64,000 nucleotides of DNA, from the NCBI GenBank assembly GCA_965226375.1, contig CBDDCX010000008.1, positions 1,856,001-1,920,000 on the forward strand, in the 5' to 3' direction. The position numbers and the translations under genes were made by a program. This stretch comes from Longimicrobiales bacterium (lineage in GTDB: Bacteria > Gemmatimonadota > Gemmatimonadetes > Longimicrobiales > Gaopeijiaceae). The notes under the pieces are model-generated. The model did no database searches. It was not told the origin of the DNA and saw only the letters and a program-made list of their open reading frames with translations. This document shows, piece after piece, positions 3,567-38,293 of this stretch (position 1 is the stretch's first letter; each line of letters begins with the position of its first letter).

Positions 3567-4829
3567 ATGCCTCTCGATCGTATAGCCGGTGTGCTGGATG
3601 CTCACGTCGCGGGCCTCCACGAAGCCGGAACGGCAAAGGGTGCCGAGACCGTGTTCACCGGAGTCCGGAGGGCCGAGGGAGACCGCGGCCCTCGATTCCT
3701 CCTGGAGGGCGAGGGAGACAAGGAGTTCATACGCCTGAACTCCAACTCCTACCTCGGTCTGGGACTCAATCCCGAAGTCATCCGTGCCGAGGAGAGGGGT
3801 TCCGCCGAGTTCGGAGCGGGCCCGGGGGCGGTTCGTTTTATCAGCGGGTCGTACTCAGCCCACCTGGAGCTCGAGCGCAAGCTGGCAGATTTCCACGGGC
3901 GGGAATCGGCCGTGATCTTCTCGTCTGCCTACGCATGCGTCGTCGCGACCATCTCGTCTCTGGTCACGTCCGAGACGGTCCTCGTCAGTGATGCACTCAA
4001 CCACAACTGCATCATCAACGCCATGAAGTTGTCGCGACCGGCCGGCAAGGTCATCTACGACCACAACTCGGTGACGGGCCTCGACCGGGCCCTCGCGGAG
4101 TGGGCGGGCAAAGCCAAGCGGGCACTCATCGTCACGGACGGCATCTTCAGCATGCGCGGAGATCACGCTCCATTGGACGAGATCATGGATGTGGTGGCAC
4201 GTCACGACCCCGCCTACGAAGAGAACGCGGTGGTGTTGGTAGACGACTCCCACGGCGTGGGCTCGTTCGGAAGGACCGGGCGTGGAGTCGAGGAGTTCAC
4301 CGGTTCCGCTCAGGTGGACATTCTCGTAGGCACGCTCGGAAAGGCCTTTGGAGTGAACGGTGGATACGTCACCGCCCCCGAGTCGGTGATCAACTTTCTG
4401 CGCGAGAGCTCGCCGACGTATATCTACTCCAACCCCATCACCGTCGGAGAGGCCAAGGCAGGGCTCGAGTCGGTGCAGATCGTGGACAGCCCCGAGGGCC
4501 TGGCCCTGCTGGACAAGCTGCGGGGTCTGACCAAACGCTTCGAGGACGGCTTGGGACGCCTGGGCATCGAAACCATCCCCGGTGAGCATCCCGTAGTTCC
4601 GCTCATGATCCGCGATACCGAAAGGACCCGAGCCCTCGTCGACTATCTGTACGACAACGGGGTTCTGGTCACGGGACTGGCCTATCCGGTGGTGCCGAAG
4701 GGTGACGAAGAAATCCGCACTCAGATCAATGCCGATCATACGGAAGCCGATATCGACCACGTGCTCGGACTGCTTGAAGCGTACGACGGTGAACCCCAAC
4801 GGCTGAACATCACAGGAGACTCACCATGA
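3567..4829 (+). CDS. kbl: 2-amino-3-ketobutyrate CoA ligase (glycine C-acetyltransferase)
   Basis: NSYLGL, AVRFISG, SDALNHNCII, DDSHG, GTLGKAFG (PLP lysine). Confidence 0.88.
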   Translation: MPLDRIAGVLDAHVAGLHEAGTAKGAETVFTGVRRAEGDRGPRFLLEGEGDKEFIRLNSNSYLGLGLNPEVIRAEERGSAEFGAGPGAVRFISGSYSAHLELERKLADFHGRESAVIFSSAYACVVATISSLVTSETVLVSDALNHNCIINAMKLSRPAGKVIYDHNSVTGLDRALAEWAGKAKRALIVTDGIFSMRGDHAPLDEIMDVVARHDPAYEENAVVLVDDSHGVGSFGRTGRGVEEFTGSAQVDILVGTLGKAFGVNGGYVTAPESVINFLRESSPTYIYSNPITVGEAKAGLESVQIVDSPEGLALLDKLRGLTKRFEDGLGRLGIETIPGEHPVVPLMIRDTERTRALVDYLYDNGVLVTGLAYPVVPKGDEEIRTQINADHTEADIDHVLGLLEAYDGEPQRLNITGDSP

Positions 4830-33458: not shown

Positions 33459-33726
33459 GTTCCCATTCCCCGTTCAACCAAAAATGCAGCAAGAGTCTTA
33501 TTCACAAGCCGCCTAACATACCACCGAATCGCTCATCCACGCACCTGAGAGGCAAGACCAGCTCGATCCGTGCGTAGGCCGTTCTACCGCACCCGAATCC
33601 CGCCACAGAGGCCTACGTCATTCGGGCCTTCCACTACGTACTATGGCGTATCCATTCGGATGACGGCCCATGGCATCCTCATTGAGGGCGGAACAGTCCG
33701 CCGTTTCAACAAGCAAGGAGGACACC

Positions 33727-34893
33727 ATGAGCTCTCTACTATCCATAACGGCGCTCGCTTCTCTTGCGTTCGCCGCTGGTGCGTGCGATCGGAATCCAAC
33801 GGATGTCGAGGAAGACGTTCTGCCGGAGGAGGGACAGGTCTTCGAGCAGGGGCCTCCTCCTCCACCGCCGCCACCCCCACCGCCGCCGACCCACGCCGTT
33901 ACCATCATGTCTCGTAATCTCTACCTGGGAGCCGATCTCACACCGATGATGAGCGCCGGCTCGCCCGAGCAGATTCCGGCCCTCGTGGGGGAAGCCTGGA
34001 ACAGGATCGTGCTGAATGACTTTCCCGCTCGGGCAGACGCCATAGCCCGAGAGATCCAAAGCACCCGCCCGGATATACTAGGCCTTCAGGAGGTCGCCAA
34101 GTTCAGAATGCAAAGCCCGGGTGACTTCTTGGTCGGCAATCCACAAGCGGCTACCGCAGTCGAGTACGACTATCTGATGATCCTCCTGGACGCCTTGCAA
34201 GCGCGAGGCCTCAACTACACCATTGCTTCAGTCGTCGAGAACACCGATATCGAGCTTCCGGCCATCACGAACGCCGGCTTGGTCGACGTTCGCTGGACCG
34301 ACCACGACGTGATCCTCGTGCGTGATGGAATCAAGATCACCGGCGAGACATCGAACAACTTCGCACTCAGCGTGTCCATCCCGGTGGCCGGGGCGATGCC
34401 CATCATCATCCGACGTGGCTGGAACCGGATCGACCTGCTGGTCGACGACCAGCCGCTCCATGTCGTCAACACCCACCTCGAGACCGACGAGACCGGTCCG
34501 ACGACCCAAGAGTCGCAGGCCGCCGAGCTGATCGGCATGCTGTCGGGGCTCACGGTGCCCACGATTATCATCGGCGACCTCAACGCACTGCCGGACGCAG
34601 CCAGCACGGCGACGTATCCGATCCTGTTGAACGCGGGCTTCGAGGACGCCCAGACGAGCACGATGGCTCGCGGCTCGTTGCCCGGTTACACATGCTGCTT
34701 CGACCCCGACCTTCGGGCCGGCGGCCTGTTCGAACGGATCGACTACCTGATGACACGTGGGACGCGCAACCTGGACGTAAGAGTGGTCAACTTCGCCGTC
34801 ACGGGAGATCTGGAGGCGGACGAGACGGTGACCGGACTGAGACCCTCCGACCATGTAGGAGTGTTCGCCCGCGTGGAGATCGTCGGGCACTGA
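33727..34893 (+). CDS. Endonuclease/exonuclease/phosphatase-family lipoprotein
   Basis: AAGGAGG RBS, lipobox AGAC, poly-Pro linker, MSRNLYLG, GLQEV, NTHLE, GDLNA, RIDY, SDH. Confidence 0.88.
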   Translation: MSSLLSITALASLAFAAGACDRNPTDVEEDVLPEEGQVFEQGPPPPPPPPPPPPTHAVTIMSRNLYLGADLTPMMSAGSPEQIPALVGEAWNRIVLNDFPARADAIAREIQSTRPDILGLQEVAKFRMQSPGDFLVGNPQAATAVEYDYLMILLDALQARGLNYTIASVVENTDIELPAITNAGLVDVRWTDHDVILVRDGIKITGETSNNFALSVSIPVAGAMPIIIRRGWNRIDLLVDDQPLHVVNTHLETDETGPTTQESQAAELIGMLSGLTVPTIIIGDLNALPDAASTATYPILLNAGFEDAQTSTMARGSLPGYTCCFDPDLRAGGLFERIDYLMTRGTRNLDVRVVNFAVTGDLEADETVTGLRPSDHVGVFARVEIVGH

Positions 34894-34989: not shown

Positions 34990-35724
34990 TCATGCCAGTC
35001 GCTTGGCGATCCATACGGTGCGGAATACCGCCGTGCCCACGGTCCCGACTGCGACAATGGCCATGATTCCGGTGAGCAGGGTGCCGGGATCCCAGCCGGC
35101 CCATTCGCTCACCGCCGGATCCAGGATGCCTCCAAACCCGATGACCATGAGCCGCTCCGCTCGTTGCATAACGCCAAGGTTGCACAGCACGCCCAGGCTC
35201 TCGCCACGGGCGCGGGCGTAGCTCACCAACAGGGATCCGCCCAGCGCGGTGGCGGTCAGGGACAACGCCAACGTCGAATCACGAAACAGAACGGCCAGAC
35301 CGACGAACGCGCCTACCTCCGCGAAGCGATCGAGCGTCGAGTCAAGAAAAGCTCCGCGTTGATTGGCCATGCCGCGGGCCCGTGCGATGCGGCCGTCCAT
35401 CACGTCCGCCGCGCCACCCAGGAGCACTCCCCAGCCACCGAGGTTCACGTAGCCGAGTGCGAAGCACACGCCGGCGCCGATACCAAACGCGACACCGAGC
35501 AGGTTGAAGGCTGTGGGCGAAAGCCCCAGCGACAACGAAACGGCCTCGATCGGCCGGATGAACCAGTAGAACCACCGCCGCACGAAGCCCCCGAGCACAA
35601 AGCTTCCACGGTTCGCCACGTCATGAGGGTCACTCGCGATCCGCGAGGAACTCAGCGCGTAGACGGGCATCGACGCCAGGGCAGCACCGAGGATGATAAG
35701 CAGGACCAGAAAGTCCGTTCTCAT
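34990..35724 (-). CDS. CDP-alcohol phosphatidyltransferase (PIP-synthase-like)
   Basis: DVMDGRIAR-x7-GAFLDSTLD signature; VSYARARGE...QRAER. ATGA overlap with the upstream gene. Confidence 0.92.
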   Translation of the reverse strand: MRTDFLVLLIILGAALASMPVYALSSSRIASDPHDVANRGSFVLGGFVRRWFYWFIRPIEAVSLSLGLSPTAFNLLGVAFGIGAGVCFALGYVNLGGWGVLLGGAADVMDGRIARARGMANQRGAFLDSTLDRFAEVGAFVGLAVLFRDSTLALSLTATALGGSLLVSYARARGESLGVLCNLGVMQRAERLMVIGFGGILDPAVSEWAGWDPGTLLTGIMAIVAVGTVGTAVFRTVWIAKRLA

Positions 35725-36716
35725 TTCGAGATCTCTCGCGGTGGGCGGGTCAGCAACACCTTGATCGCACGCGGCCACAGGAAAATAAGAGGCACCTTAC
35801 GCTCGAGTGCGGTCAGGTGAATGGGGCGACCCGTATGGCGCTCCACTTTCCGGACGACATACGGCAACCAATTCGCAAAGGTGATCGTGTACTTGAACCA
35901 GCGCAGCGTGGCCCGGACTTTGGAGCGTCGAAAGTGCGCGCGCCAGCGTCTCCGCACGCCTGAGGGTACGGGGGCAGCCAAAACGAACATCTCGTCCTCC
36001 CTCCGCAGGACGTTCTCCTCCTCGCCACGTGCCAACACGGCGCCGAAGTGCTCTCGGAAATGGCCTGCCTGGGCTACGGAGATCCGTCGGGGTCGATCCT
36101 TCGACTCGGGGCGCAGCTCACCCTGATAACACACCTCTAGTAGGCGCCGGCCGAAGCCGGCTGCGTCGACCGGCTCGCGGAGATACGGGACCATCCATTC
36201 GAGCACCCGGCCCCGCGCGTCGGCCAGCTGGGTGTCGATCCAGACTTCATCCTCCCGACTCGCCAGGTAGACCTTGCCGAGCATCTGAACCATGCGACCC
36301 AACAGAAAATGGTCCGGCGGCTCGGGTCCGAGAGCCTTGGCGAGATGATCCCGGCTGACGATGACGCATTTCGCGAGTCCCCCGGCACCGTCCTCGGGCG
36401 CGAACACGATCACGTTGGGCGGCAGCAGTCCTGCCATCCGTGTCATCAGCCAAGGGGGCCGATGTAGCTCTTGGGCGGCACTGAGCCCCCGGTAGAACGA
36501 TGCGTAGTCCTCGACAATCACGAAGAAGTCGAAGGCGCTGTGCCGATCAGGGCTGGCGGCGGTCAGGTGGGATCCGTAGAGAAGGATCGCGCGGATCGAC
36601 CCATCCGTGGCCGCCAGGAGGGCATCGGCCAGCTCAACGGCGCCGGGCCAACGTCGTGCCGCCGACCTGGAGGCGTTGGCATCCCGCGAGCCCATGTCGC
36701 GAGAGGAGTCGTTCAC
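35721..36716 (-). CDS. Tam41/Mmp37-like nucleotidyltransferase (putative phosphatidate cytidylyltransferase)
   Basis: LLYGS, FDFFVIV, AKCVIVS, FLLGRM, CYQGELR and PESKDR follow the order of Tam41 motifs as I recall them. GTGA overlap with plsC. Confidence 0.75.
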   Translation of the reverse strand: MNDSSRDMGSRDANASRSAARRWPGAVELADALLAATDGSIRAILLYGSHLTAASPDRHSAFDFFVIVEDYASFYRGLSAAQELHRPPWLMTRMAGLLPPNVIVFAPEDGAGGLAKCVIVSRDHLAKALGPEPPDHFLLGRMVQMLGKVYLASREDEVWIDTQLADARGRVLEWMVPYLREPVDAAGFGRRLLEVCYQGELRPESKDRPRRISVAQAGHFREHFGAVLARGEEENVLRREDEMFVLAAPVPSGVRRRWRAHFRRSKVRATLRWFKYTITFANWLPYVVRKVERHTGRPIHLTALERKVPLIFLWPRAIKVLLTRPPREISK

Positions 36717-37483
36717 GCGACCGGCGCTTCTGCGCGTAGGTCGGCGAGGCCCCGCACCATCACTTCACGGATCTCTGATATGAACGGTTCGGGATCGGCT
36801 TCGGGATCCGTCCAGTGTAGGACGCCGGCCAACTCTAAGCGCCCCCGAAGCTTCGCAACCCCGCCGATGAAGTCCTTGAACTTGGCCACCTGCCAGAAAC
36901 CGTCCACTACAAGGACGTACACCTTCCATGGCCGGGCTCTGAGAATCGCCTTCGTTCCGTGGCGGTGGAATGGTCCGATTTCGCCATCCTTGGTACGAGT
37001 TCCTTCCGGAAAAATCGCCAGCGGCACCTCGGAGGTACGGGCCGCCTCACAGATCTCGTCGAGGGATCTCCTCATTTCAGAGACCTTTCCTTCGGGATCC
37101 ACCACCGGATATTGATAGAGTCTCAACATATGCGAGACTAGCGGGATCCAGCGGGCGTATCTCTTACGGGTTAGGATTCGGAGGTGTCCCGGCCGCACGG
37201 ATTCCACCACCATTGGAATGTCGAACATTGATTGGTGGTTCATGACGATGAGAACACCGGGCTCGAATGGGACCTGTGGAGGGATAGGCAAGTGTGCCCC
37301 GCCGATGACCGAGATAGGACGCGTTACGAGCCAAATCAACGCCTGCATCCACGGGCTGAGCACCTGGATTCGCCGTGAAGGCCGAAGCCAGGTCCACGGT
37401 CCGATGACGAACCGTTCGACCGGATCGGCCACGAGAATTCCGAGGCAGACGACAGCCACGGCCAGATACCCTCGAAGTCTCAC
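36713..37483 (-). CDS. plsC: 1-acyl-sn-glycerol-3-phosphate acyltransferase
   Basis: GGAGG RBS before GTG at 37483; NHQSMFD (HX4D) and IFPEGTRT. Confidence 0.88.
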   Translation of the reverse strand: MRLRGYLAVAVVCLGILVADPVERFVIGPWTWLRPSRRIQVLSPWMQALIWLVTRPISVIGGAHLPIPPQVPFEPGVLIVMNHQSMFDIPMVVESVRPGHLRILTRKRYARWIPLVSHMLRLYQYPVVDPEGKVSEMRRSLDEICEAARTSEVPLAIFPEGTRTKDGEIGPFHRHGTKAILRARPWKVYVLVVDGFWQVAKFKDFIGGVAKLRGRLELAGVLHWTDPEADPEPFISEIREVMVRGLADLRAEAPVA

Positions 37484-37621
37484 TCGAAGCGCCTCCGGCG
37501 CGATTGCGTGTATAGGTCGAAGCAACTCGGGAACAGGAACGGACTTGGAACACGCTAACGGCACGCGCCGATCGGCATCAAGGCGAGCACGTGGCGGCCC
37601 CGCACCAAGGCGAACGCGTAC

Positions 37622-38293
37622 ATGAGCGATAACGGCTACACCTACTACGGGTTTCGGCACTGCGTCGGAGCGTTCTTCGAAATGCCGACGGAGGATGCAC
37701 GCAAGCTTCTCCCTCGTCATTTGGAACCGCTGGAGATGCAGCACGAGCGCAGTATCCTTGCCCTGACCGCCTTCCATTTTCATGAGAGCGAGGTGGGTGA
37801 GTACGGAGAGATCGTCCTCGCGGTCATCGTGCCGCCGATGATCGAACCGGGCAAGCCACTCCCAAAGGCCGCATTCTTCCCGTTCGTGGTCGGTACCACC
37901 ACCGAAGTGTCGCGCCTACATGCCATCGAACGGTGGCACCTTCCGCACTACATGAGCGACGTTGAGATCAAGTTCACTGAGACTGACCAGGACATGGAGG
38001 TCAACGTGTTCGACGGTACCGAGCCTGTTCTGGACCTGCTCGTGACACGGCATTCCTACGAGGCGTCGAACAACCTCTACCACGCGTTCACCGTCGATGG
38101 CGACGAGAGGTTCAAGGCCAACATCTACATGAAGGCGCCGCACTCTGAGCATGAAGAGGAGCGTGGCTCACTGACCTTGTACGAGCACGAGATGACCGCC
38201 AGCCTCACGATCGACGACGTCAACACGTATCCCTTCCGCGAACAGTGGTATCAGGAGGGTCTACAAACCTTCGATCCGCTCGAGAAGCTCTAG
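37622..38293 (+). CDS. Acetoacetate-decarboxylase-like (ADC fold) protein
   Basis: ARKLLPRHLEP, VGEYGEIVLAVIV, AIERWHLP pattern; divergent from plsC. Confidence 0.65.
   Translation: MSDNGYTYYGFRHCVGAFFEMPTEDARKLLPRHLEPLEMQHERSILALTAFHFHESEVGEYGEIVLAVIVPPMIEPGKPLPKAAFFPFVVGTTTEVSRLHAIERWHLPHYMSDVEIKFTETDQDMEVNVFDGTEPVLDLLVTRHSYEASNNLYHAFTVDGDERFKANIYMKAPHSEHEEERGSLTLYEHEMTASLTIDDVNTYPFREQWYQEGLQTFDPLEKL

Follow-up and report, generated by a model that had tools for sequence, protein, structure and literature searches.

Background

A bacterial (Firmicutes) Tam41 with CDP-diacylglycerol (CDP-DAG) synthase activity has been solved (PDB 7ECD), and homologues are reported in Firmicutes and Proteobacteria (PMC11646218). 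Homologues of Caulobacter CpgC (CC_1161) carry the Tam41 domain IPR015222, and a ceramide activated with a nucleoside diphosphate (NDP) was proposed as the product (PMC11324152). Caulobacter strains mutated in cpgC retain ceramide phosphate but lack ceramide phosphoglycerate (PMC9393093), and both PMC12275187 and PMC11324152 treat the activity of CpgC as unresolved. CpgB phosphorylates ceramide, and a dihydrosphingosine kinase has also been described in bacteria (PMC10331486). Canonical bacterial ceramide synthesis uses Spt, bCerS and CerR (PMC11087976), and Bacteroides makes inositol phosphoceramide with an AUR1-like enzyme, BT_1522, which transfers the head group onto ceramide (PMC9246714). 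Here, a three-gene operon encoding a Tam41-like protein was analyzed in a 64,000-nucleotide stretch (the window) of a Longimicrobiales bacterium (Gemmatimonadota; GCA_965226375.1, contig CBDDCX010000008.1, positions 1,856,001–1,920,000). A first-pass annotation of the window had described a self-contained phospholipid operon with a Tam41-like CDP-DAG synthase in place of CdsA.

Together with one divergent gene, the three operon genes probably form the downstream end of a phosphosphingolipid cassette that comprises six genes and occurs in Gemmatimonadota and some Acidobacteriota; the cassette is predicted to lead from a sphingoid base through CDP-ceramide to an inositol-phosphate head group (probability roughly 0.6). 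The conserved unit is six genes encoding a serine palmitoyltransferase (SPT)-like enzyme, an acetoacetate decarboxylase (ADC)-fold protein, a YegS/DAGK-family kinase, a PlsC-like acyltransferase, the Tam41-like protein and a CDP-alcohol phosphotransferase, so the three-gene operon is not self-contained. The window features are as follows.

37483–36713, minus strand: PlsC-family (PF01553) acyltransferase, 256 aa, GTG start, divergent subfamily; proposed acylating step of the cassette
36716–36713, minus strand: GTGA stop/start overlap of the acyltransferase and Tam41-like genes
36716–35721, minus strand: Tam41/CpgC-like nucleotidyltransferase (NTase), 331 aa; proposed lipid-phosphate cytidylyltransferase
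35724–35721, minus strand: ATGA stop/start overlap of the Tam41-like and CDP-alcohol transferase genes
35724–34990, minus strand: CDP-alcohol phosphotransferase of the phosphatidylinositol phosphate (PIP)/archaetidylinositol-phosphate synthase type, 244 aa; proposed head-group transfer
37484–37621: divergent intergenic region, 138 bp, with a GGAGG ribosome-binding site at 37496–37492 (minus strand)
37622–38293, plus strand: ADC-fold protein, 223 aa, divergent; core member of the cassette

Comparison with described clusters

The cassette resembles the Caulobacter cluster (cpgABC-spt; CpgC is CC_1161/CCNA_01219), in which a Tam41-domain protein stands beside spt, a DAGK-family kinase and a CDP-alcohol transferase. 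The same genes occur together across cassette relatives, although the search of the window's own genome yielded neither spt nor the kinase. The PlsC-like acyltransferase, the ADC-fold protein and the PIP-synthase-type transferase are the cassette's own, whereas bCerS, CerR, AcpR, AasR, CpgD and LptF/G2 are missing from the cassette locus. None of bCerS, CerR, AcpR/AasR and CpgD was found in 20 extended loci or in 6 SPT-bearing contig loci; the genome-wide search for CerR, AcpR, AasR and CpgD was confined to the window's genome. The lipid expected at the end of the route belongs to one class with Bacteroides inositol phosphoceramide (PI-DHC); head-group transfer is AUR1-like there, whereas ceramide itself would be CDP-activated in the route proposed here.

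The cassette is probably a variant of Caulobacter-like phosphosphingolipid logic, and it is not a wholly undescribed kind. Its new features would be a PlsC-like acyltransferase where bCerS usually stands, the ADC-fold protein and a PIP-synthase-like last step. No description of the six-gene cassette was found in the open-access literature, subscription journals lying outside the search. Calling the locus an undescribed system was an overstatement, bacterial Tam41 (7ECD) and the CpgC Tam41 domain with its NDP-ceramide proposal being in print, and since CdsA is also not replaced, its significance is lower than the first-pass annotation held.

Gene layout and integrity

Direct reading of the sequence confirmed the three coupled minus-strand genes, both overlaps and the six motifs that had been quoted from the middle protein. 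The GGAGG lies 8 nt upstream of the acyltransferase GTG start, and no sigma-70 promoter consensus was found in the 138-bp region. The outer genes, annotated before as plsC and a CDP-alcohol phosphotransferase, match PF01553 (E 1.4e-15) and PF01066 (E 2.3e-8) in Pfam. The three operon genes are intact, having no internal stops, and their dN/dS values of 0.09–0.22 against two congeners show purifying selection. Named close homologues are from Gemmatimonadota, mostly Longimicrobiales. The divergent ADC-fold gene was absent from the earlier three-gene account.

An EEP-family lipoprotein-like gene (33670–34893) is convergent with the operon, a linkage seen only within the genus.

The Tam41-like protein

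The 331-aa protein consists of an NTase domain, a winged helix and basic C-terminal helices, and its six motifs lie at residues 41–49, 62–68, 115–121, 137–142, 196–202 and 203–208. Searched alone, it reaches no Pfam or NCBIfam family at cut-off, has weak NTase matches at E 0.01–0.02, and gives no Tam41 match in Pfam, NCBIfam, PDB-sequence or own-genome PF09139 searches. A profile of 46 close homologues also has no Tam41 match in the PDB.

A wider family was collected by searching 1.84 billion representatives, which yielded 627 relatives; 78 full-length or fused homologues, chosen among 150 matches listed of the 627, were scanned for domains. PF09139 is matched at E≤0.001 by 38 of the 78 and its cut-off is reached by 31, but the window protein itself stays below detection and is not directly matched by the profile. 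A family profile built from 74 sequences has the Tam41 proteins of Schizosaccharomyces pombe (E 5e-12) and of a Firmicutes bacterium (E 1e-6) as its best PDB matches, and five motifs (YGS, Asp, Lys, GRxQ, YxGExR) align column by column with 6IG2 and 7ECD. Residues G48, S49, D63, K116, R141, K275 and K290 are invariant in 74/74 aligned Tam41-like sequences.

The predicted structure (pLDDT 92, pTM 0.90) has only Tam41 structures as its top five Foldseek matches. In VIA-align, model residues 13–280 superpose on 245 of the 272 residues of 7ECD (Z 21.7, root-mean-square deviation 3.5), and S. pombe 6IG2 scores Z 16.2. Other NTases reach Z ≤8.5 over about 90–150 residues, against 221–245 residues for Tam41 structures. 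Because Tam41 ranks first in both Foldseek and VIA-align, the outcome that would have spoken against the Tam41 assignment, best hits to MNT antitoxins or other NTases, did not occur. The C-terminal helices carry invariant K275 and K290 and near-invariant R272 and R293; residues 281–331 are unaligned, and the S. pombe construct is without that part.

Both the profile and the predicted fold, in which the winged helix and apparently also the C-terminal part take part, place the middle protein among the distant bacterial relatives of the mitochondrial lipid-activating enzyme Tam41 and not among MNT antitoxins; the Tam41-likeness seen by the first-pass annotation is borne out. It shares with Tam41/Mmp37/TAMM41 (6IG2/6IG4, 7ECD, PF09139) a two-domain fold, apparently with C-terminal helices, motifs that correspond one to one, and a single conserved N-terminal aspartate. 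It differs in its low identity (11–15%), in lying below PF09139 detection, in coexisting with CdsA and in having neighbors that point to a sphingoid, not a glycerol, backbone. It is a conserved Tam41-fold candidate for a lipid-phosphate cytidylyltransferase, the activity being predicted.

Among the 78 scanned homologues, 5 are acyltransferase–Tam41-like fusions; a Tam41-like–CDP-alcohol transferase fusion is clear in one case (P0204), and a second (P0272) looks frameshifted. Four further proteins (P0129, P0135, P0247, P0266) fuse Tam41-like domains to cytochrome P450 (two), an EEP phosphatase/nuclease domain and a MobA-like NTP transferase; one of the two P450 fusions has an extra unannotated N-terminal domain.

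Cassette linkage and co-occurrence

Gene order was compared in 79 related loci, mostly close kin, so that locus counts are not independent. The neighborhood is conserved and not a product of chance: the acyltransferase gene lies directly upstream of the Tam41-like gene in 79/79 and the CDP-alcohol transferase gene directly downstream in 75. The ADC-fold gene is present in 74, the YegS/DAGK kinase gene in 71 and an SPT-like gene in 6. Two Acidobacteriota loci (L117, L118) are collinear and run in a single direction: spt, adc, kinase, plsC, tam41 and CDP-alcohol phosphotransferase. All six genes are present in 3 of 8 metagenome loci, the other five being short or cut off on that side.

The phylum survey covered 301 genomes, of which 106 matched the family at E≤0.001; dropping 67 short N-terminal NTase matches left 39 full-length ones. 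Carriers were defined by full-length matches at E<1e-60, and removal of one unpublished genome (G155) left 300 genomes. The full-length Tam41-like family is found in 38 of these, the SPT clade in 35 and both in 33; the SPT clade thus occurs in 33/38 carriers against 2/262 non-carriers. Among the 33 genomes with both, 25 have no more than about 2.5 kb between the SPT and Tam41-like genes, and in most of the remaining 8 the SPT gene has moved, along with a second ADC copy. The ADC gene occurs in 36/300 genomes, namely the SPT-clade set plus the window's genome, and the kinase in 35 of the 38 carriers. Three carriers without the SPT clade have an informative locus (G257, G096, G212), and in 3/3 this locus is also devoid of the acyltransferase and ADC genes, which ties the acyltransferase to the SPT product and not to phosphatidic acid (PA) synthesis.

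At the usual place of spt, adc and plsC, the G212 locus encodes a 518-aa protein with no Pfam match (L142:6866–8419). Longimicrobiales loci (L046–L116) have a second undecaprenyl-diphosphate-synthase-like gene (48/79), a transcription regulator and a membrane protein after the kinase, which is probably local synteny.

Relatives in sphingolipid clusters

On plasmid pPNP1, a full-length family member (profile E 3.6e-84) directly follows the lipid kinase in a Caulobacter-type sphingolipid cluster, which includes a pyridoxal-phosphate aminotransferase, an acyl carrier protein, an epimerase, an acyl-AMP ligase, lptF/G, the lipid kinase and a CDP-alcohol transferase. The protein at the CpgC position of the plasmid cluster matches the window family profile end to end, with only about 26% identity to the window protein; CpgC was compared through that protein and by description. 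A second Tam41-like paralogue in G157, a genome that also carries the six-gene cassette, is 40% identical to the pPNP1 protein (G157:C94, L178:2069–6746). It stands between the genes of a CerR-like NAD-epimerase and of a CDP-alcohol transferase that shares 59% identity with the one in the window; a bCerS-like gene completes the row, and the kinase is divergent. Both contexts appear to point the same way as the sphingolipid reading.

Pseudomonas plasmid NZ_CP073662.1 (about 65700–84300; L123/L154) carries a near-complete, IS5-flanked Caulobacter-type cluster for sphingolipid synthesis and transport, in which the bCerS-like open reading frame is interrupted by IS5.

CdsA and ordinary phospholipid genes

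The window module is not a CdsA substitute. A full-length CdsA is encoded in the window's own genome (E 8e-55), CdsA is present in 37/37 other carriers (complete in 36 and truncated at the end of a contig in 1) and in 5/5 further genomes, and the proposal of a Tam41-like enzyme in place of CdsA fails. The genome has five PF01553 genes (four besides the cassette member) and five CDP-alcohol transferases. A PIP-synthase-like gene followed by ino1 (inositol-3-phosphate synthase) is located at G000:C8:833009–834989; the former is a closer PIP-synthase paralogue (37% identical). CdsA, the separate ino1–PIP synthase pair and the four other acyltransferases presumably serve ordinary glycerophospholipid synthesis. 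Since ino1 occurs in 265/301 phylum genomes, the window's included, its co-occurrence is uninformative for the cassette. From the same count, inositol lipids may be general in Gemmatimonadota.

Proposed pathway

From the observed folds, families, active-site conservation, linkage and co-occurrence, we infer all substrates and the order of the steps. The SPT-like enzyme would form a sphingoid base by condensing serine with an acyl thioester, and the YegS/DAGK-family kinase would phosphorylate its C1 hydroxyl. The PlsC-like enzyme would add a second acyl chain to the sphingoid-1-phosphate, which resembles lysophosphatidic acid (LPA), giving PA-like ceramide-1-phosphate. The Tam41-like enzyme would then use CTP to form CDP-ceramide, from which the PIP-synthase-like enzyme would displace CMP with inositol-3-phosphate.

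The best solved match of the SPT-like protein is serine palmitoyltransferase 3A2B (E 2e-90), with the best KBL/AONS at 2.5e-71. GTFSK, which we take to be an SPT-marking motif, is present in 27/27 SPT-like copies. The acyltransferase has NHQSxxD, TRxR and FPEGxR motifs, and H83, D88, E160, G161, R163 and R108 are kept in 91–93 of 93 loci. A bCerS-like match is absent from 20 of 33 cassette genomes and from 3/5 further genomes. The bCerS label of the query is a provisional one given by gene position, the query being without a Pfam or NCBIfam match. Given a sphingolipid backbone, N-acylation by the PlsC-like enzyme falls a little short of an even bet.

The best NCBIfam and PDB matches of the CDP-alcohol transferase are PIP/archaetidylinositol-phosphate synthases. 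The inositol-phosphate pocket of Mycobacterium tuberculosis PgsA1 has been described (PMC6506517). Equivalents of PgsA1 R94, S132, Y133, R137, R152, R155 and R195 are kept in the window transferase (R133, S168, R188, R191 and R235 correspond to R94, S132, R152, R155 and R195), and the pocket residues are kept in 90–93 of 93 loci. Relative to the PIP synthases it resembles (PgsA1, R. salmoninarum PIPS, BT_1523), the window transferase scores below curated family cut-offs overall and has an extra N-terminal membrane segment. On a sphingolipid backbone, an inositol-phosphate head group is the probable outcome.

The ADC-fold protein aligns with acetoacetate decarboxylase at Z 22.1. Among 26 aligned ADC-fold sequences there is no invariant Lys that could serve as the Schiff-base lysine; the window protein has a His right after conserved Pro108, which we take to be the position of that lysine in true ADC. 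A complete "phosphate-first" ceramide route that mimics glycerophospholipid logic, combining PlsC-type N-acylation, CDP-ceramide, inositol phosphoceramide and a lysine-less ADC-fold protein acting on a 3-keto intermediate with no need for bCerS or CerR, is rather unlikely as a whole.

Several observations weigh against the sphingolipid reading. CDP-ceramide is demonstrated for no enzyme in the literature examined, and an open-access search on the term was empty. Because the surveyed genomes include close kin, which are not independent cases, the co-occurrence counts are too high a measure. The SPT-like proteins are below every NCBIfam SPT cut-off with scores about equal to BioF, and one aligned near-cofactor position is Ser where the solved SPT has Asn. 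The cassette has no fixed reductase member, a zinc dehydrogenase being present in 6 loci only. The cassette kinase is distant from the CpgB-like kinase of pPNP1 (30% over 133 aa), and characterized members of the kinase and acyltransferase families mostly act on glycerolipids. A bCerS-like gene is present in 13 of the 33 cassette genomes. Finally, the assembly of the window's genome (90% complete) yielded no SPT-clade gene, no cassette kinase and no bCerS-like gene, SPT and the kinase were not found in one congener either, and de novo sphingoid synthesis is therefore only a proposal for this organism.

Another congener (95% complete) and two more close relatives carry SPT and the kinase as a separate operon. 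Both flanks of the congener's SPT/kinase block map inside contig C7 of the window's genome, about 227 kb apart, and the thymidine kinase gene neighboring the block was also not found in the window's genome (G000) or in G303. In four sequencing runs that include the window's operon there are also spt-adc-kinase contigs at congener level (88% identical), which are unassignable because the runs hold at least two related strains. If the loss of SPT and the kinase is real, the four window genes may use scavenged sphingoid phosphates or glycerolipids.

Two candidates for the missing partners were rejected. The single DAGK_cat match in the window's genome is partial (52 positions), and the AOS enzyme at window positions 3603–4793 has 28–31% identity, a GTLGK motif and glycine C-acetyltransferase as its best match. 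A zinc-dependent dehydrogenase directly after the kinase in L120, L124, L131, L142, L143 and L175 is a candidate 3-keto reductase; no match to it was found in the window's genome.

Alternative explanations

A different amino-lipid could be made by the same activation logic if the AOS-family enzyme takes an amino acid other than serine, or an unusual acyl donor, and the ADC-fold protein then reshapes the 3-keto product; the final lipid would be a non-canonical ceramide or carry another head group. The sub-cut-off scores of both the SPT-like proteins and the CDP-alcohol transferase would suit such a product, as would the lack of a fixed reductase and an obligatory ADC-fold protein with no counterpart in described ceramide clusters. 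The cassette SPT-like proteins are, further, only 36–44% identical to SPT-like genes adjoining bCerS-like genes. This explanation is nevertheless quite unlikely: the SPT match stands well above cysteate acyltransferase (E 2e-90 vs 2e-58), serine provides the primary hydroxyl that phosphorylation and CDP activation require, and the inositol-phosphate-binding residues are conserved.

An accessory glycerophospholipid route beside CdsA is improbable; in it, the kinase and PlsC would turn salvaged monoacylglycerol, alkylglycerol or LPA into PA, the Tam41-like enzyme would form CDP-DAG and the last enzyme PIP. The module is tightly linked to and co-occurs with the SPT clade, the acyltransferase is gone from the locus where that clade is missing, CdsA, four further PF01553 genes and a PIP synthase linked to ino1 are already available in the genome, and related family members sit in ceramide clusters. 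These points stand against three in its favor: the only two structural matches with characterized biochemistry synthesize CDP-DAG, a PlsC is the one solved relative of the acyltransferase, and the window's genome keeps its three genes under purifying selection where SPT and the kinase were not found. Retention of CdsA alone is compatible with CDP-DAG synthesis by the Tam41-like enzyme, because E. coli CdsA has a second job, in MPIase (PMC7018664). The first-pass annotation had drawn the order LPA, PA, CDP-DAG and head-group lipid; this order is less likely than the sphingolipid reading because the module tracks an SPT-like gene and a lipid kinase.

That the middle protein is a non-lipid NTase (an MNT antitoxin, aminoglycoside NTase or similar) lying by chance among lipid genes is very improbable. 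In favor of it are the protein's only direct Pfam matches, weak ones to Polbeta and Adenyl_transf, and the missing direct match to PF09139; against it stand the much higher Tam41 structural scores, the fusions to acyltransferase and CDP-alcohol transferase domains and the invariant gene order.

Implications and further observations

Under the sphingolipid reading, the cassette is a compact, collinear test system for a CDP-ceramide intermediate. If the PlsC-like enzyme N-acylates sphingoid phosphate, this would be a new way of making ceramide and a third unrelated kind of ceramide synthase, and genome surveys requiring spt, bCerS and cerR would miss such producers. The cassette also suggests that many bacterial Tam41-fold proteins are sphingolipid enzymes and not CdsA substitutes.

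Nothing relevant on Gemmatimonadota sphingolipids, the canonical ceramide pathway in the phylum included, was found in the open-access literature. A bCerS-like gene is present in 186/301 phylum genomes. In 5 of the 6 loci examined (L155–L160) it comes after an SPT-like gene that differs from the cassette's, and in one of them a CerR-like gene is next. The gene content suggests a canonical ceramide pathway in much of Gemmatimonadota.

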